Origin: Rubripirellula sp.
GTDB lineage: Bacteria; Planctomycetota; Planctomycetia; Pirellulales; Pirellulaceae
DNA: 64,000 nt
Direction: 5' to 3'
Assembly: GCA_049602075.1 (NCBI GenBank)
Contig: JBMYRF010000020.1
Coordinates: forward strand, 68,240-132,239
Shown here one piece after another: positions 37,623 to 46,742 of the stretch. Under the pieces are notes generated by a model, which did not search any database, was not told the DNA's origin, and saw only the letters and a list, made by a program, of their open reading frames with translations. The position numbers were made by a program, and so were the translations under genes. The first letter of the stretch is position 1. Each line of letters begins with the position of its first letter.

Positions 37623-38420
37623 TTAAAACTTGTGTCCTTGCCGTGGACCACCCTTGGTGAGGGTGAGGATCTCGGGGCCATCCTCTGTCATCAAAATTGA
37701 ATGCTCGAACTGAGCTGAAGCAGCACCATCCTTGGTTCGCACCGTCCAGCCGTCGGATTTGTCGCTACGGGTGTACCGGCTTCCCGCGTTAATCATTGGT
37801 TCCACAGTGAAGCACATCCCGGGATAGAGCCGGTCGATGCGGCTTTGCCGATTCGGAAAATGCGGTACCGAGGGGTCAAGGTGAAATTGCCGCCCCAATC
37901 CGTGTCCGACATACTCCCGGACGACGGTGAAGCCGCGTCCATGAGCCTCAGGCACAACTGTTTCTCCAATCTTGCTGACGCTGCAACCAGGACTCAACGC
38001 GTCAATTGCAAGATACAGACAATCAAAGGCACACTGGGTCACTGCCCGTTTATCCTCTGAAACCTCGCCGATTAAAAAGGTTTCGCTCTGATCACCATGC
38101 CAGCCGTCGACCACTGTCGTGATATCAACGTTAACGATATCGCCATCTTTTAATCGATAGTTGTCCGGGATCCCGTGACAAATCACGTCGTTGATGCTCG
38201 TGCAGCAACTCTTCGGGTAGTTTTGGTACCCCAAAGTGGCGGGCCTGTATCCCTGGTCGATGGTCCAGCGATGCACGAGCTCGTCAATCTCGCCGGTGCT
38301 GATGCCAGCTTTGACATGGGGACGAACATAGTCCATTAACTCTGCATTTGCCTGGCCAGCTCGACGCATCGCATCTTGCTGGGCCTCGGACAAAATGAGT
38401 TTCTTTTGCTTCGTCAGCAT
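37623..38420 (-). CDS. map: Methionine aminopeptidase type I
   Basis: KSCCTSINDVICHGIP, DGDIVNVD, GWHGD, GHGLG, FTVEPMIN, AQFEHSIL. ATG at 38420. Confidence 0.96.
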   Translation of the reverse strand: MLTKQKKLILSEAQQDAMRRAGQANAELMDYVRPHVKAGISTGEIDELVHRWTIDQGYRPATLGYQNYPKSCCTSINDVICHGIPDNYRLKDGDIVNVDITTVVDGWHGDQSETFLIGEVSEDKRAVTQCAFDCLYLAIDALSPGCSVSKIGETVVPEAHGRGFTVVREYVGHGLGRQFHLDPSVPHFPNRQSRIDRLYPGMCFTVEPMINAGSRYTRSDKSDGWTVRTKDGAASAQFEHSILMTEDGPEILTLTKGGPRQGHKF

Positions 38421-39081
38421 GATTTTTTTTAATAGCAACCGAAGGAAATCGTCGCACTGAGCTCAAGCGCGAAATAGGTCTCAGCCTCCCCGGCAAGCCA
38501 GGGCATTAAAGCGATCGGATCATCCTGCGGCATTCTAGCAGAGGAGAAAAATGAGAACGCCTACAAAAAGATGGTACCAATGCCAGCATCGGGAGGGTAG
38601 CTGCGTTCGCGCCGATTGGTTAGCCGTTAGGTCATAAGGTCCCAATTTGGCTTGATTTATCGCCACCCTCAATCAGGCTTCGTGCCCAAATTCTTCGGAG
38701 TAACAATGCCACTGTGAGCCTTGCAGAAGGCACGCCGCACTCCTTTTAATTTGCATGCAGGGGATCTTCCGAGACCGGGATCGGTTCGCCGAAGTAATAA
38801 AGTGCTGAAACTTTGGCCATCGCGGGCCAGTAATAAGGGGGACGCAGGGCGGCCTGCCAGGGCAGCTGAGGGCAGCAGCTGAGGGCGAATGGGTGATTCG
38901 GGCAAAAGGAAAGTGACGAAACAGGCAGAAACTAGCGACGGCGTGAGGGGTTACAAGTTTTGCAGCGACCTCTGCGCCCGCCGAAGAGCCATACCGGCCG
39001 GTTTTGTGATCGGTTTGTAGCGATTCGGTAATTACTATGGCGAACTGGTATACAGCATTCAATTTCGACGCGGTTCTCAGC

Positions 39082-42033
39082 ATGAAATCGATTTTTAATC
39101 TTTGTTTTTTTGCCCTCGCGGGTGTCTTGCTTTTCCCTGAGGGGGGGTATTCGCAGGGTTCAGCCCCAACCGCGGATGTAGCGGCTCAAGATTCGCCCGG
39201 ATCCGATCAGAATTCAGGCGGCGAATCGAAGGCAGCCGAAACGGCTGACCCGGCGGTCGCTCAAGACCCGCCTGCCGTCAGTGAGACACCAGCAAGTACC
39301 TCAACCCGAGTGGCTCCAGCGCGGCCAGTTATGCCGGCTGAACCTGTCTCGCCAACCGACAAGCAACAGCTGAGATTCAGTTTCGCGGGGACAGCTTGGC
39401 CACAAGTCCTGGATTGGTTTGCGGAAGAGGCGGATCTCGCACTCCAGCTTGACCAGTCACCTTCGGGGAGTTTCACCTTTTCGGATCCAACCAGGACCTA
39501 CAGCATTGCTGAAGCTCTGGACGTCATCAACTTGACGCTGATGAAGAGCGGATACACCCTGGTGCGTCGCGGTCGGATTCTGCAGGTGATCGATTTGGAA
39601 TTAGAAAACGCTGACAAAATGATCAGTGAGATTGCTGAACTCGTCGCCCCCGATCAGTTGGGCGAACGAGGGAAGAGCGACGTCGTTAGCAGTGTGTTTC
39701 CGTTGGGCAGCATGACACCTACCGAGGCTCGCGAAGAGATCTCTCAGATGGTTGGTCCATGGGGGCGCGTGATTGTGCTCGACTCGGCTCGCCAGGTGAA
39801 GGTAACTGAGACGGCAGGCAAGTTGATGGCGATTCGCGATTTGTTGGATACCGCATCGCAAGCTGACTCCAACGTAATCGAAATTGTTCTGGAGAACCGT
39901 GGTGCTGATGAGCTGCTAGAAATTGCTCGCCCACTGCTGGGTTTGGACGCGGGAGAGAACTCCGGAGATGACATCCGAATCTCGGTCGGACTATTTGGCG
40001 ACCGAATTTATGCTGCCGGCCTACCGGGGAAGACAGGTTTGCTGCAATCGATCGTTGAGAAAGCAGACCAGCCGCTTGAAGTGCCCGAGGGTGAAGAGGG
40101 AGCGGAAGTCGCCAAGCCAGTTTTCCAAACTCATACGGTTAGCTCAGCAGATATCACGACCGTGTTCGACGTGCTGCAAACGTTGCTCGCTGGGACACCA
40201 GAAGCTCGCATTGCGATTGATCCAAAAACGAATGCGATTATCGCCTGGGCACGCCCTGAGACCCACAAATTGATCGATACCACGGTCACAGAAATGGAAG
40301 GAAAAGGGACCAGTTTTAAAGTGATCGATTTGCGCCGGCTCGACCCAACTCAAGCTCTTTTGACGATTAATAAGTTCTTTGGTGTTTCCGAGGAGGGTGA
40401 AGGCGATGGACCAATCGTCGATGGTGACCCGGCAACCGGCAAGCTTTGGGTCCGGGGCACTGAGACCGAGATTACCTTGATCGAGAAACTGCTCAGTGAA
40501 TTAGAAGGCAGTGACTCGCTGGGGGGCTTGAGTGAGAAAGTTCGCCTGCTTCCTTACAGCGGTCGTGCCGCCGAGGATGCCCTGGAACAAATCGAATCGT
40601 TGTGGCCGGTAACTGGTCGAAAGAATCAAATCCGTACGTTCTCACCCTCGCGTGGGAATGGCGGATCCAACGGTGATCGCGGCGGTATTCCCGAGCGACG
40701 CGTTCCGCGTCGACCCGCGCCAGCAAACACACTTCCAGTGGATACCACCGAGGCTTCAGTTCAGCCGCAGCAACGTTATCACCTGGTCGTCGATCAAGAC
40801 GTAACCGGTGCGACCGAGGCAACGCCGACGGTGGCGACGACACCACAAGATTCCTCCTCCCTCCGCTTGAATGTGGAAGGGGCCGACATCGTCGTTCAAA
40901 TGACGCCCGCAGGAATGCTGATTGCATCGGAGGACACCGAAGCGCTGGACGCTTTCCAATCGTTGTTGGAATCACTGGCAACGCCATCGGGTGTTGCTTC
41001 GGATTTGCCGACCATCATCTGGTTGAAATACATCAAGGCGGACGTCGCTTCCGAGTTGATCGCGAAAGTGCTTGGTGGCGGCGAAAGCTCGATTTCATCA
41101 GCCGTCGAGTCGGTTGCTGGAGGTCTTGGTGGCGGTATGTTGGGGCTGCTTGGCGGATTCGGTGGTGGCGGTGGTGAATCGACTGGAGCTCAATCAATCC
41201 TCACCAGCTCTGGATCGGTCAACATCGTGCCCGACCCTCGGCTCAACGCGCTGATTATCCAAGCGAATCCAATCGACATGCAGATGATCGAGTTAATCCT
41301 CGAAAAGATCGACATTCAAGAGAGTCCCGAAGATGTTGAAACGGTTGCTAAGCCCGCGCTGATTCCTGTGATCTACCAAGATGCCTCGGATGTCGCGACG
41401 GTCGTTAAGTCAGTGTTCGCCGATCGGGTCACAGGTGGTGAAGCGAGTCGTGGTGGCGGTGGTCGTGGTGGACAGCCATCACCGGAGGACTTCATCAACG
41501 CCCTTCGTGGTCGAGGCGGTCGCGGAGGTGGCGGAGGTGGTGGATCCGCAACGAGTGAGCCAGCCAAAATCAGCATCGCTGTGGACACGAAAAGTAATTC
41601 CTTGGTTGTGACGGCGACTCCCCAGGACTTCAAGGAAGTGCGAGAACTTGTCGAGGCACTCGATTACAGTAGCCAGCCGAGCGAGGAAGTGGTCGAGATC
41701 GCTCCCTTGCGCGGTGATGTGAATCCTGAGGTGATCAAGCTGGCGTTGGAGTCAATCCTGGGGCAGCAGACCGGTTCGACGAAAGAAGCTTCCGCTAATA
41801 AAACACCTAGCAGCGGTAGCGGTAGTGGCAGTACTAGCAGTAGTTCACAACCGAGCACGTCAGACATTCAACGCCGGATAGAAGCTTTTCGTGCGATGCG
41901 AGCTGGAGCCGGTGGCAGTTCTGGCTTTCGCGGATTTGGTGGTGGCGCGCCAAGTGGTGGTCGTGGCGGGGCGGGCGGTGGCGGTGGCGGGCCAGGCGGT
42001 GGTCGTGGCGGGCCGGGTGGCGGCGGACGCTGA
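39082..42033 (+). CDS. Secretin N-terminal-domain protein (GspD-like N0 plus about 7 NolW-like repeats, no secretin C domain)
   Basis: Signal peptide. N0-like LRFSFAGTAWPQVLDWFA...FTFSD. Repeated units such as IAIDPKTNAIIAWA, IVPDPRLNALIIQA, IAVDTKSNSLVVTA. Ends in a Gly/Arg tail. Upstream of gspE-gspF. Confidence 0.85.
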   Translation: MKSIFNLCFFALAGVLLFPEGGYSQGSAPTADVAAQDSPGSDQNSGGESKAAETADPAVAQDPPAVSETPASTSTRVAPARPVMPAEPVSPTDKQQLRFSFAGTAWPQVLDWFAEEADLALQLDQSPSGSFTFSDPTRTYSIAEALDVINLTLMKSGYTLVRRGRILQVIDLELENADKMISEIAELVAPDQLGERGKSDVVSSVFPLGSMTPTEAREEISQMVGPWGRVIVLDSARQVKVTETAGKLMAIRDLLDTASQADSNVIEIVLENRGADELLEIARPLLGLDAGENSGDDIRISVGLFGDRIYAAGLPGKTGLLQSIVEKADQPLEVPEGEEGAEVAKPVFQTHTVSSADITTVFDVLQTLLAGTPEARIAIDPKTNAIIAWARPETHKLIDTTVTEMEGKGTSFKVIDLRRLDPTQALLTINKFFGVSEEGEGDGPIVDGDPATGKLWVRGTETEITLIEKLLSELEGSDSLGGLSEKVRLLPYSGRAAEDALEQIESLWPVTGRKNQIRTFSPSRGNGGSNGDRGGIPERRVPRRPAPANTLPVDTTEASVQPQQRYHLVVDQDVTGATEATPTVATTPQDSSSLRLNVEGADIVVQMTPAGMLIASEDTEALDAFQSLLESLATPSGVASDLPTIIWLKYIKADVASELIAKVLGGGESSISSAVESVAGGLGGGMLGLLGGFGGGGGESTGAQSILTSSGSVNIVPDPRLNALIIQANPIDMQMIELILEKIDIQESPEDVETVAKPALIPVIYQDASDVATVVKSVFADRVTGGEASRGGGGRGGQPSPEDFINALRGRGGRGGGGGGGSATSEPAKISIAVDTKSNSLVVTATPQDFKEVRELVEALDYSSQPSEEVVEIAPLRGDVNPEVIKLALESILGQQTGSTKEASANKTPSSGSGSGSTSSSSQPSTSDIQRRIEAFRAMRAGAGGSSGFRGFGGGAPSGGRGGAGGGGGGPGGGRGGPGGGGR

Positions 42034-42288: not shown

Positions 42289-43980
42289 ATGATCATGCAC
42301 GCGGGCGAAATTTTACGCCGCCGTGGGTTGCTCAGCGAAGAACAGCTTGAGCAGAGCCGCAGTAGCGATGCGACTAGCGTCGTCCAAGCTGCAATCTCGC
42401 TCGGCTACGTCGAGGAGGGGGCAGCGCTTCGCGCTCTCGCCGACGAGGTTGGCCTGGATTACGTCGATTTGCGCGAGACCGACATCGACCTCACCGCGTT
42501 AGAGGGATTCCCGCAGAAACTGATCTACCGTCAATCGCTCTTTCCGATCGGTTTCGAGGACGACTCGATCATTGTCGCGACCTCTGATCCGCTCGATCTT
42601 TACCCATTGGACGAGGCCAGCGCCGCAACGGGCAAAAATATCATCCCGGTCGTTGCCGAACGGGACGAGATTGCTCGATTGATGAATCGCCATCTCGGTG
42701 TGGGTAGCGAGACGGTCGAGAATCTTGTCGCCGCTAAGACGGACGGCGAAGTCGAATTGCTCGAAAAGATCGAAACCGATGGTAGCGAACTGAGCGAAAT
42801 GGCTCAGGAGGCCTCTGTTGTTCGGTTGGTCAACGAAATCTTGCTCGAAGCGATCCAGTCGCGGTCTAGTGATGTTCACATCGAGAGCCAATCAAAAGGG
42901 TTGGTGATCCGGTATCGCATCGACGGGATCCTGCACCCTCAACCAACCCCGCCCGAAATCAATCAATTTCAGTCGGCGATTGTTAGCCGCTTGAAGATTA
43001 TGGCGAAGTTGAACATCGCTGAGAAACGGCTTCCACAGGACGGTCGCATCAAGCTAAGGGTGCATGGTCGAGAAGTCGACATTCGGATGAGCGTGATCCC
43101 GATGATTCACGGTGAAGGGATCGTGATGCGGATCCTTGATAAATCCGCGATGGTATTCAATCTGCAAGAGCTGGGAATGGCTCAGCATGTTTACGATGAC
43201 TTCAGCAAAATTATCGAATACCCGCACGGTATCATCCTCGTAACAGGGCCAACTGGTTCTGGTAAGACGACGACGCTTTACAGCAGTTTGCTGCAAATCC
43301 AAAGTCCCGAAACCAAAATCATTACGACAGAGGATCCGGTCGAGTACCAGCTGGACGGTATCAATCAGATTCAAGTTCATTCGAAAATCGGTTTGACATT
43401 CGCTCACACGCTCCGAAGCATTTTGCGGCATGACCCTGATGTCGTTCTGGTCGGTGAAATTCGTGACTTGGAAACGGCGGAGAACGCGATTCAAGCTTCG
43501 TTGACCGGTCACTTGGTCTTCAGCACACTGCACACTAATGATGCCTCCGGGGCGTTTACGCGGATGAGTGACATGGGAGTTGAGCCCTTCCTGGTTGCCG
43601 GCACGGTGGAAGCAGTGATGGCTCAGCGATTGTTGCGGCGTCTATGTAAACATTGCAAGGAATCGTACCAGCCCAGCCGAGTCGATGTTCCAGGCGACTT
43701 CCCTTGGGACATGTTGGATGGCCGTGAGATCTTCCGGAGTGTCGGATGCCGCGAATGCCGCCACGTTGGCTACACCGGTCGAATGGGTATCTATGAATTG
43801 TTGACTGCGAATGACGAAATCCGAGAGCTTGCGCTCAAGCGAACCAGTAGCTGGGAGATTCGAAAAGTCGCAGTGAAGTGTGGAATGAGAACCTTGCGAA
43901 TGGACGCTTGGGATAAAGTTGTCTCCGGAGATACTTCAGTGGACGAGGTTCTTCGCGTCACCAAGGGTGAGGCGCTTTAG
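42289..43980 (+). CDS. gspE: Type II/IV secretion ATPase GspE/PulE
   Basis: Walker A GPTGSGKTTT, TTEDPVEY, LRSILRHDPDVVLVGEIRD, STLHTND, CKHC...CREC Zn motif. AAGGAG RBS. Confidence 0.95.
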   Translation: MIMHAGEILRRRGLLSEEQLEQSRSSDATSVVQAAISLGYVEEGAALRALADEVGLDYVDLRETDIDLTALEGFPQKLIYRQSLFPIGFEDDSIIVATSDPLDLYPLDEASAATGKNIIPVVAERDEIARLMNRHLGVGSETVENLVAAKTDGEVELLEKIETDGSELSEMAQEASVVRLVNEILLEAIQSRSSDVHIESQSKGLVIRYRIDGILHPQPTPPEINQFQSAIVSRLKIMAKLNIAEKRLPQDGRIKLRVHGREVDIRMSVIPMIHGEGIVMRILDKSAMVFNLQELGMAQHVYDDFSKIIEYPHGIILVTGPTGSGKTTTLYSSLLQIQSPETKIITTEDPVEYQLDGINQIQVHSKIGLTFAHTLRSILRHDPDVVLVGEIRDLETAENAIQASLTGHLVFSTLHTNDASGAFTRMSDMGVEPFLVAGTVEAVMAQRLLRRLCKHCKESYQPSRVDVPGDFPWDMLDGREIFRSVGCRECRHVGYTGRMGIYELLTANDEIRELALKRTSSWEIRKVAVKCGMRTLRMDAWDKVVSGDTSVDEVLRVTKGEAL

Positions 43981-45192
43981 ATGCCGACGTTCGCCTACAT
44001 CGCTCGCGATATGACGGGCAAGCAAATCACCGGCACGGTTGACGCCACCGGGGAACGCGAAGCAGCAGCATTGCTGGCCGAGCGGTCTCTGTTTCCTGTG
44101 CAGGTCAGCGATGCAAGCCCTGCCGCATCACGCTCACTGTTTGGCAAACGCAAGAAAGTCAAAGGCCAAACAATGGCGATTTTCTATGCGCAAATGGCGT
44201 CGCTGCTACGGGCCGGTGTGCCGATGATCCGTTCCCTAAATGTGCTCTCCGAGCAAAGCTCGGATGCGGTTCTCAAGGAAGTGATTCTTGAGATTCGTGG
44301 CCGCGTAGAAGAAGGCGAGCCGATCGGCGATTCGATGGCCCGCTATCCCGACATCTTCAGCGACATGGCTTGCAACATGGTGCGAGCAGGTACCGAGGGT
44401 GGTTTTTTGGAAGATGCTCTCGACCGAGTTGGTGCCTTCACCGAACTGCAGGAAGACCTCAAAGGTCGTACCATCAGCGCGATGGCTTACCCGATCTTTT
44501 TGTTCTCTGTTGGTACCGTAGTGCTTTCCGCACTCTTGGTCTTTTTCGTGCCGAAGTTCGACATGTTGTTTGATCGTTTGCGACGCAATGATCAAATGCC
44601 GACAGCGACCGAATGGTTGCTGACCTTCAGTAACTTTTTGCAGAGCTACGGTTGGATCTTGTTGGCAGCGATTTTGGGAGGCTTGGTTTTCGCGAAAGTG
44701 AAGCTAGAGACGGATGCCGGCAAGGCGTTTGCCGATCGCGCGAAACTCAAAATCCCAGTGTTGGGGAATATTTTGATGAACCTCGCGGTCGCGCGATTTT
44801 GTCGAGTGCTGGGAACACTGCTCGGAAATGGCGTGCCGATCTTGAAGTCACTGGAAATCAGTGGGACTGCGGCAGGTAATCGCTTGCTGCAGGATTCCGT
44901 TGCAGATGCTTCGGAAAACATTAAGGGGGGGGATTCACTCGCATCGCCGCTCCGCGCCAGCGGGCACTTCCCTGCCTCCGTCGTTGAAATGATCAGCGTT
45001 GGTGAGGAAAGTAATTCGCTCGACACGGTGCTGCCGGATATCGCCGATTCATTAGAGAAGACGACGTTCCGAAGGCTTGACCTCTTCGTGCGATTGCTGG
45101 AACCAATTATGTTGCTGGTTATGGCAATCCTTGTGCTCGGTGTCGTGATGGCATTGCTGGTGCCGGTGCTCAAGAGCAGTACCACCCTGTAA
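43981..45192 (+). CDS. gspF: Type II secretion inner-membrane platform protein GspF/PilC
   Basis: MPTFAYIARD start, LLRAGVPMIRSL, VRAGTEGG, LLGNGVPILKSL, MISVGEESNSL, three TM segments. Abuts the gspE stop. Confidence 0.95.
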   Translation: MPTFAYIARDMTGKQITGTVDATGEREAAALLAERSLFPVQVSDASPAASRSLFGKRKKVKGQTMAIFYAQMASLLRAGVPMIRSLNVLSEQSSDAVLKEVILEIRGRVEEGEPIGDSMARYPDIFSDMACNMVRAGTEGGFLEDALDRVGAFTELQEDLKGRTISAMAYPIFLFSVGTVVLSALLVFFVPKFDMLFDRLRRNDQMPTATEWLLTFSNFLQSYGWILLAAILGGLVFAKVKLETDAGKAFADRAKLKIPVLGNILMNLAVARFCRVLGTLLGNGVPILKSLEISGTAAGNRLLQDSVADASENIKGGDSLASPLRASGHFPASVVEMISVGEESNSLDTVLPDIADSLEKTTFRRLDLFVRLLEPIMLLVMAILVLGVVMALLVPVLKSSTTL

Positions 45193-46512
45193 GCACGGCT
45201 TGGTACGCAGTCCTAGCGTTTGGCGGAGAGGGGATAAAACGTCGCCGCCCGGAGCCTGTATTGGCCAGTTGACGCTGGGCCCAAATTTGATGGGCAAGTG
45301 CATGTCGGTATTGGTTCCATCCCGGTAATCGTCTGATTGTTCGGTGACCCGGCCTCGCGTGATTCGATGGCGACTCGCAAAGCTCTGTTTTCCGGCCATT
45401 GAGGACCTAGTGCATCCGTCCTTCTCGCGTCCTCTCGAAGCAGCGATAGAACCTGGCTTGGTGATCAGACTTGAGGGATTCGCGATCGTTATCTCGCTCT
45501 TTCCCTTTCCGAAACCGCTTCAGAATCGCGGCTTTTGAAAAAGAAAAAAAGTTTTTTTCTGCCGGAATGAGAGGGCTGGCAGCCTTCAGGGCGGACGATT
45601 CACGTCAAGAAAAGGTGCCGGCGAGGAGGCAACATTACTGGGGCAAAGCGATGCCGCACTGCCCCGCCAGCACTCTCGGATTGTACCAGAATGCGTCGCT
45701 CTTTGCCTCCTCCTAGAGACCGAAAAGTTGGCTTGCAAACCCGAAGGAGAAGGGATTGGAGGGATCGGAGAAGCCAGGGTGTCTCCAGCGGGATTTCGGG
45801 CTGTGCGGAGGTCGGATGTGTCGAGAATCTCATTGTTTCCTAGTGTTTTACGTTCACTGCGCGGTTCACTACACAATTTTTTACCCCTTCGGTTGAGTGC
45901 TGATTTGCGATGCACCTCCGATAGCACCCCTGTAGTGGTTTTCTGCGAGCCCGATTTTGGCAGAGCTGGAACAGCTTCCGAGTGCCCGTGAGTTTGCCGC
46001 CGAATCACACTTGCTTCGAGCGTTGGAAGCCGCCAGAGAAGGTCAATTTACTGCGCGGTGCCGGTCGTGAAATGTCCGCGACCGGGGCTGGCTCTACCGT
46101 CTACTTTCACATGCCTTGAGACTCCTCTTGGCACGCAAGTTTTGACAGGTTGGCAAGCGTCCAATTCGCATCCGAAAGACGCCGTTGAATTGGTTCGCAT
46201 CAAACAGGATGCCAAATCGAGAGTTTTTTTTTGCAACACGAATTCACACCTGCCAGCGTGCTCTTTCCCTCTAGGCGACTTGAAAACAGATGCCTAGGAT
46301 CGTGCTTGTTGGTGATGCAAAGGAGATCGCGATCGACTGATGCATCGCAACGTTGATCGCACGGCAAGACGCTGCGATCTGTTGAACAACGAGTTGTCAA
46401 ACGACGATCGGTACAACGGCGTTCTGGGGGTGAGGTGTGATGGGGGCATTCGCACCTCGTGTCCCCCAGGACGCTTTTTTTGTTCAGATCTTATTCAGCT
46501 ACAACATGCTTG

Positions 46513-46589
46513 CACTTCGCAGGCTTTCCACTTCGCAGGCTTTCCACGCTGTAGGCTTTCCACGCTGTAGGCTTTCCACGCTGTAGGCC
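46513..46589. repeat. 16-bp tandem repeat x5 (CACTTCGCAGGCTTTC x2, CACGCTGTAGGCTTTC x3)
   Basis: Adjacent copies in two sequence variants, no spacers, about 150 bp upstream of the esterase gene. Confidence 0.92.
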
Positions 46590-46742
46590 TGTGATCTTTC
46601 CGTTTGTTCATCTGGTTCGCATTGAGGCTGTTGGCTTGCATCCTTGGCAGCTTACGATTTTGTTTGCCAGGCAAAGTTGCTTACCATATTGTTCACATTG
46701 CGTCCGGCTGATTCTTCTCTCTCCTGTTAGGACAAATCTTCC

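Follow-up and report, generated by a model that had tools for sequence, protein, structure and literature searches.

A 64,000-nucleotide stretch of the genome of Rubripirellula sp. (assembly GCA_049602075.1; contig JBMYRF010000020.1, here C20, positions 68240-132239; hereafter the window) carries a gene, referred to here as D', whose product is built from the periplasmic N domains of secretins and has no outer-membrane barrel. We interpret D', with a probability of roughly 60%, as the periplasmic, inner-membrane-proximal half of a secretin made of two polypeptides, belonging to a variant type II secretion system (T2SS) that occurs mainly in Pirellulales. The partnership of D' in one system with a barrel-bearing secretin encoded on another contig (D) is well supported by comparison of genes and genomes. 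We infer beyond this that D' would form rings, that these would lie under D with their loops facing the lumen, and that the whole would have the dimensions estimated below.

Domain architecture and conservation of D'

The D' gene is an intact open reading frame (ORF) on the + strand that ends at position 42033 and has two candidate starts, 39037 and 39082. The second is judged the likelier because close homologues begin MKSI or MKTI, and residues are numbered here from the Met at 39082. Among Pfam families the protein matches Secretin_N (PF03958) alone (150 bits, E 2e-44, four stretches), with no match to the secretin core, PF00263, even at E<=1, while the GspD equivalog model TIGR02517, whose cut-off is 351 bits, gives 108 bits and aligns over the N-domain part only. 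A sequence-only reading of the window had proposed that the secretin core is absent and had named a scan with hidden Markov models (HMMs) beforehand as the test, and the scan agrees with it.

The AlphaFold2 (AF2) model of D' (72 homologues; mean predicted local distance difference test score, pLDDT, 69.9, with folded domains at 85-95) consists of an N0 domain followed by seven beta-alpha-beta-beta-alpha domains, N1-N7, with no barrel strands after N7. The first strands of these seven domains are DVVSSVF, VIEI, VFQTHT, FKVIDL, VRLL, TIIW and ALIPV, and they coincide with the landmarks from which the sequence-only reading had counted an N0, seven N domains, a partial eighth and a Gly/Arg tail, all of which the model recovers. 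The top Foldseek matches of D' in the PDB are to the periplasmic N domains of PulD, XcpQ (N0-N2), ExeD, GspD of enterotoxigenic Escherichia coli, a Deinococcus secretin and InvG, and the N0 domain finds XcpQ N0-N2, the GspC-GspD N0 complex 3oss and PilQ N0 4ar0.

Several segments between and beyond the folded domains distinguish this protein. In the alignment of homologues, both the acidic linker before N0 (which differs in length as well as sequence) and the insert of N5 are variable; the insert of N6, which is 44% Gly, is conserved across 30 homologues. The family profile aligns N7 together with its Gly-rich loop to N3 and the loop of XcpQ (5wln). When D' is aligned with the partner secretins described below, the half domain that follows N7 corresponds to strand 1 and helix 1 of their next N domain, and this ordinary N-domain identity fits better than a relic of the first barrel strand, which the XcpQ alignment had hinted at. 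The protein ends in a disordered, basic tail (65% Gly, with GGGGR at the end), preceded by a helix that the model places at residues 926-942; the charge of the tail contrasts with that of the acidic N-terminal linker, and the composition of the whole C-terminal region (linker, helix and tail) is conserved in all aligned homologues.

A homologue search over 5.8 billion proteins returned 360 matches, of which 120 were listed. All 120 listed proteins contain PF03958 only, at 51-96% identity and with lengths of 780-1140 amino acids (aa), mostly 900-1060 aa, and they come from Rubripirellula, Novipirellula, Rhodopirellula, Stieleria, Crateriforma and Roseiconus, with complete chromosomes among them. 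The alignment retains the Gly-rich loops, the half domain, the helix DIQRRIExFR and the GGR tail. In wider genome searches, for which the N0-N4 piece of D' served as query, a match was present in 72 of 101 sampled genomes of Pirellulales, and in a phylum-wide sample the only matches beyond the order fell in two of eight genomes of a single further family within that class. Distant homologues, drawn from other families and one other order, likewise proved to be Secretin_N only in all eight cases checked. Moreover, only 255 bases separate the stop codon of D' from gspE, which therefore leaves no room for a frameshifted barrel. The earlier expectation that the gene is not truncated and that its orthologues do not continue into a secretin domain is thus upheld by the 120 listed and eight distant homologues. 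Databases name these proteins variously "secretin N-terminal domain-containing protein", "NolW domain protein" or "GspD/PulD (secretin)".

The partner secretin and the dispersed gene set

The genome holds eight PF00263 secretins, all of them on contigs other than that of the window, and four multi-domain ORFs that contain Secretin_N only: the window's D' and those on contigs C35 (904 aa), C28 (1020 aa) and C12 (2149 aa). The last of these heads a complete paralogous T2SS cluster (C12:67931-89403) with the gene order D'-E-F-G-H-I-J-K-L-M-D-S. Its D', which has an N0, 15 or more N domains and no barrel, is followed by GspE, GspF, GspG, GspH, two pseudopilin-like proteins, GspK, a PilM/GspL-like protein, a GspM-like protein, a true secretin D (1138 aa, with six or more Secretin_N domains and PF00263) and, at the cluster end, S, a 327-aa lipobox protein.

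For each gene of the C12 cluster the rest of the genome contains a single best paralogue, and these paralogues make up a second set that is dispersed over three loci. The window contributes D'EF (GspE 61% and GspF 44% identical to the C12 proteins), C2:157-165 kb contributes G, K, L and M, with GspG and GspK recognized by Pfam and pseudopilin leader motifs present, and C15 contributes D and S (38% and 40% identical to their C12 counterparts). In a genome of a different genus of the same family (G094), window-type D'EF genes, with a GspE 72% identical, are directly followed by G-H-J-K-L-M, and the G-M genes on C2 of the present genome are closer to these than to the C12 set. The paralogy with C12 thereby names as partner of D' the 1262-aa secretin with multiple N domains on C15, together with the lipoprotein-like gene S downstream of it. 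A barrel-only partner was also considered, the secretins without Pfam N domains being two of the Tad type (on C3 and C69) and one at C2:395 kb; paralogy favours the C15 secretin.

The same association is found in other genomes. Three genomes that belong to two other families of Pirellulales (G061, G051 and G029) have D' directly followed by D and S; in G061 and G051 Pfam finds Secretin_N alone in D' and both Secretin_N and Secretin in D, and for G029 the assignment of the genes comes from BLASTP only. Additionally, a strong match to S is present in 65 of the 72 D'-positive Pirellulales genomes and in none of the 29 D'-negative ones (Fisher p = 5e-19, with kinship not corrected for). Three of the seven D'-positive genomes that lack a strong S match are <90% complete, and two more have weak S matches. 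The families of D and D' also share named species and chromosomes.

In their domain content D' and D are complementary. An HMM of the D' N0 domain matches nine of nine D' proteins, as well as one ordinary GspD of this genome (on C36), and matches none of five partner secretins (C15, C12, G061, G051 and G029), even with filters off. For D, the model was made from an orthologue of the C15 secretin that is 83% identical over the N-terminal 500 residues searched and belongs to a family of 393 members with PF03958 and PF00263. In the AF2 model a signal helix is followed by an N-type beta-alpha-beta-beta-alpha domain from residue 31, then by about eight N domains, a barrel at residues 733-1006, a helix and a long disordered tail, and no N0 is present. 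Because the N0 HMM matches D' and not D, and because the model of D has the barrel and no N0, D' keeps the module with which canonical secretins dock on the inner-membrane platform, and D keeps the pore. The sequence-only reading had envisaged D' as a tube beneath a true secretin encoded elsewhere in the genome, and the partner secretin is now identified through paralogy, adjacency, co-occurrence and complementarity of N0; the stacking of rings and the link to a wide periplasm are the parts of that proposal that we continue to infer.

Other features of these families were observed along the way. Past the barrel and the C-terminal helix, the partner secretins carry a disordered Pro-rich tail of 160-250 aa (model residues 1034-1196; about 1010-1262 in the C15 protein), and canonical S domains are much shorter than this. 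A 703-aa member of the partner-secretin family, on a 629-kb contig, is without PF00263, which may represent a second, independent loss of the barrel or a frameshift. The secretin at C2:392562-395993 (1143 aa) has some 920 residues without recognizable N0 or Secretin_N before its PF00263 barrel, and no E or F genes nearby. The Secretin_N-only paralogue on C28 (C28:16786-19848), which has an N0, lies between a multihaem cytochrome-like gene and a gene for a 929-aa MMPL-family transporter, and may put its array of ring domains to a use other than type II secretion. On C35 (C35:26217-37377, which covers both genes) the paralogue is 31% identical to the window's D' and directly follows a gene for a 2760-aa protein with tetratricopeptide repeats (TPR) and bacterial alpha-2-macroglobulin domains.

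A proposed two-chain conduit and its rivals

In the arrangement that we propose, D' would be exported by the Sec pathway and would provide an N0 docking domain, directed toward the GspE/F/L/M platform, together with seven ring-building N domains. The separate D protein, encoded on C15 in this genome and without an N0, would provide about eight further N domains and the outer-membrane barrel, with the lipoprotein-like S encoded beside it. D' and D together have about 16 domains. If each of these oligomerizes as secretin N domains do and the two proteins are stacked in series, they would amount to about 16 rings and, given a ring height of about 3-3.5 nm in solved secretins, to a length in the region of 50 nm. 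Folded substrates would be driven along this channel, and so across the unusually wide planctomycete periplasm, by the GspG-K pseudopilus encoded on C2. The Gly-rich loops of N5-N7 are expected to face the lumen because they are sited where the N3 loop of GspD sits.

A number of observations weigh against this arrangement. D' was modelled as a monomer only, with a predicted TM-score (pTM) of 0.30, which says nothing on domain arrangement, and isolated secretin N domains are often monomeric without a barrel, so that rings are not assured. The disordered inserts of N5-N7 are large in the model and might fill rather than line the lumen. The three gene sets (D'EF, G-M and D-S) are unlinked in this genome, and the C28 and C35 paralogues lie beside non-T2SS genes, so the fold serves other contexts too. 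Furthermore, on contig C66 of G029 two different N0-bearing D' genes (1091 and 1340 aa) stand in tandem before D-S, where simple stacking predicts one, and the statistic for co-occurrence of D' and S ignores phylogeny.

The alternative that best survives comparison, although we consider it unlikely, is that D' substitutes for GspC, acting as a flexible adaptor that forms no ring and tethers the inner-membrane platform to the base of D, with the N domains as a string of spacers. D' takes the place of gspC/gspD at the head of the operon and has long disordered linkers at both ends. In addition, no PF11356 (GspC) match was found in the D'-containing clusters, the only one in the genome (C2:51072-51536) lying within a canonical T2SS cluster at C2:51-60 kb; however, the ordinary T2SS cluster on C36 is also without a detectable PF11356 GspC, so this absence is not discriminating. 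Pfam finds no GspC-type HR or PDZ domain in D', the signal peptide looks cleavable and would hence leave no GspC-type membrane anchor, and the domain type of which D' consists forms rings in every solved secretin (PMC5745081).

Improbable, in our assessment, is a role of D' as an assembly factor, plug or regulator of D that binds transiently to the N domains of D, for example as a chaperone across the wide periplasm or as a seal made by the Gly-rich loops. The conserved Gly/Leu/Met and Gly/Arg loops, like the basic tail, could block a channel or serve to bind a partner, and for type IV pili there is a recent report of plug proteins that interact with secretins (PMC13392014). Nonetheless, D' has kept N0 and D has lost it, a pattern that best fits a permanent division of labour, and in the family of the window D' appears grouped in an operon with the motor genes E and F, not with D.

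We regard as more improbable again the possibility, already raised by the sequence-only reading, that D' and GspE/F form a periplasmic structure independent of any secretin, such as a conduit terminating at the cell wall or at a different outer-membrane protein, so that the linkage with D would be coincidental. No secretin is encoded near D'EF here, in Crateriforma or in Stieleria, and N-only paralogues stand beside non-T2SS genes, but coincidence accounts poorly for the adjacency of D', D and S in three genomes and their single cluster on C12, for the near-perfect co-occurrence of S, and for an N0 and a barrel that are complementary between D' and D. A secretin-independent conduit is disfavoured for the D'EF operon, while the C28 and C35 paralogues, with their other gene contexts, may be cases of one. 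Finally, that the gene is a truncated or decaying secretin, whether a pseudogene or an assembly artefact, has the missing barrel as its sole support and next to no probability, being refuted by an N-only architecture that is conserved, tail included, across the listed family, complete genomes and distant families, and by a space downstream too small for a displaced barrel.

The two-chain conduit also allows a bolder proposal. Planctomycetes possess crateriform structures, "press-stud" complexes of unexplained nature that fasten the outer membrane to the cytoplasmic one and bear fibres (PMC5394234). It is conceivable, although we would call it a long shot, that the D'/D stack (about 16 rings here, 25 or more in the C12 paralogue) forms the trans-periplasmic core of these structures, with the conserved Gly/Leu/Met and Gly/Arg loops of N5-N7 serving as a gel-like gate that replaces the missing barrel gate in the lower half.

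Gene neighbourhood, significance and known counterparts

The features of the D' gene and of its neighbours in the window are collected in Table 1. The gene order D'-E-F is kept in Crateriforma, in Stieleria and in two further genomes (G080 and G094), and D'-E is kept in a genome of another order (G143). The divergent peptidase gene likewise lies beside D' in Crateriforma and Stieleria, and is probably not part of the secretion system. Over about 1.5 kb past gspF (45193-46742) the window contains no convincing ORF, no ORF with homologues and no Rfam match. From beyond the last 40 bases of gspF this DNA is unlike that of Crateriforma and Stieleria, and it is without relics of the pseudopilin genes that follow gspF in G094, tblastn having given chance-level matches only (no E below 0.002). 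Promoter and terminator scans gave results no better than those for shuffled sequence.

Table 1. Coordinates of D', its segments and adjacent genes (positions within the window).
Feature	Position	Strand	Evidence
D' gene, barrel-less secretin-like protein, 983 aa	39082..42033	+	ORF, Pfam, homologue alignment, AF2
Likely Sec-type signal peptide, aa 1-25, likely cleavage GYS/Q	39082..39156	+	Read from sequence; AF2 helix aa 2-16; AxA/Q here in most homologues
Disordered acidic Pro/Ala/Thr-rich linker, aa 26-95, net charge -6	39157..39366	+	pLDDT 30-38; composition
N0, aa 96-172	39367..39597	+	AF2 beta-alpha-beta-beta-alpha-beta-beta (aa 97-171), pLDDT above 90
N1-N4, compact Secretin_N, aa 201-263, 266-328, 347-406, 411-475	39682..40506	+	AF2 beta-alpha-beta-beta-alpha, pLDDT 85-94; PF03958 genome scan
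N5, aa 487-632, with 80-aa disordered insert between helix 1 and strand 2	40540..40977	+	AF2; composition
N6, aa 644-743, with Gly/Leu/Met-rich insert GGLGGGMLGLLGGFGGGGG	41011..41310	+	AF2; composition
N7, aa 758-863, N3-like, with conserved Gly/Arg insert containing motif QPSPEDFINALRG	41353..41670	+	AF2; best Pfam stretch
Half of an eighth N domain, strand and helix, aa 866-895	41677..41766	+	AF2 helix 882-893; motif ALESILG conserved
Ser-rich linker (aa 896-924), amphipathic helix DIQRRIEAFRAMR (aa 925-943), 40-aa Gly/Arg tail (aa 944-983)	41767..42030	+	AF2, alignment, composition
gspE, T2SS assembly ATPase with MshEN N-terminal domain	42289..43980	+	PF00437 452 bits; TIGR02533 620 bits
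gspF, inner-membrane platform protein	43981..45192	+	PF00482; TIGR02120 352 bits
Methionine aminopeptidase-type M24 peptidase, divergent neighbour	37623..38438	-	PF00557

The textbook secretin is a pore made of one chain, with two to six rings in the periplasm. In the present case an entire bacterial order appears to split the pore into two long proteins, with N0 in one, the barrel in the other and extra ring domains in both, and if D' and D do stack they would represent a new way of spanning a very wide periplasm. Marine Pirellulaceae are major polysaccharide degraders, and D', E, F, G-M, D and S provide a concrete gene set for secretion in these organisms. The D'/D pair is likewise a candidate for envelope-spanning structures of unassigned composition. 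On the practical side, the annotation of D' as "GspD (secretin)" is wrong as to pore function, and T2SS detectors that require one secretin per locus will misjudge D'/D systems.

Our literature search found no description of barrel-less secretin-like proteins or of GspD in Planctomycetes, and we found the two-protein pore design described in no paper. The closest relatives in architecture are the T2SS secretins GspD, PulD and XcpQ (PF00263 with PF03958; 6hcg, 5wln, 4e9j, 3ezj), with which D' shares the N0 fold, the Secretin_N domains and a gene position beside gspE and gspF, and whose N3 domain, including its Gly-rich loop, is the counterpart of N7. Unlike these proteins, D' has no barrel, gate or S domain, and in place of the three N domains of GspD it has seven and a half, with three large loop inserts and a Gly/Arg tail.

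Secretin N domains on a chain apart from the barrel have been described in two other settings. In the type III secretion system of rhizobia, the chain with the N-terminal domains, RhcC1 (NolW), and the barrel chain, RhcC2, are encoded apart (PMC3973906). The D'/D pair is similarly composed of an N-domain chain without a barrel, which keeps N0, and a separate barrel chain without N0, both lying in one cluster on C12; it differs in being of type II and in the many extra N domains of both halves (about 8 each, and about 15-20 in the C12 D'), and the D'/D split is ancient and conserved across an order. The T2SS-derived mitochondrial system of Naegleria and jakobids combines stand-alone Secretin_N proteins, GspDN1-3, which include half domains, with a barrel-only GspD, and a two-hybrid interaction has been reported (PMC8134430). 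The half-domain versions recall the half domain in which the N-domain array of D' ends, whereas GspDN1-3 are eukaryotic proteins of single or half domains with no N0 and D' is a long N0-N7 array encoded in a bacterial operon with GspE and GspF.

Extension of a secretin channel and its combination with a second protein also have precedents. PilQ of Thermus thermophilus forms six stacked periplasmic rings, N0-N5 (PMC5745081), and resembles the proposed conduit in that extra N-domain rings lengthen a channel across a wide periplasm; PilQ, however, is a single chain with a barrel that serves a type IV pilus and DNA uptake, whereas the D'/D array, of about 16 domains, is distributed over two chains. 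In Tad systems RcpC, a separate ring-forming periplasmic protein, docks on the secretin, where it offers the filament a conduit (PMC12307814). Its likeness to D' is confined to the function that we propose, since RcpC has an unrelated fold and a transmembrane-helix anchor, whereas D' looks like a soluble, exported protein made of the N domains of secretins themselves.

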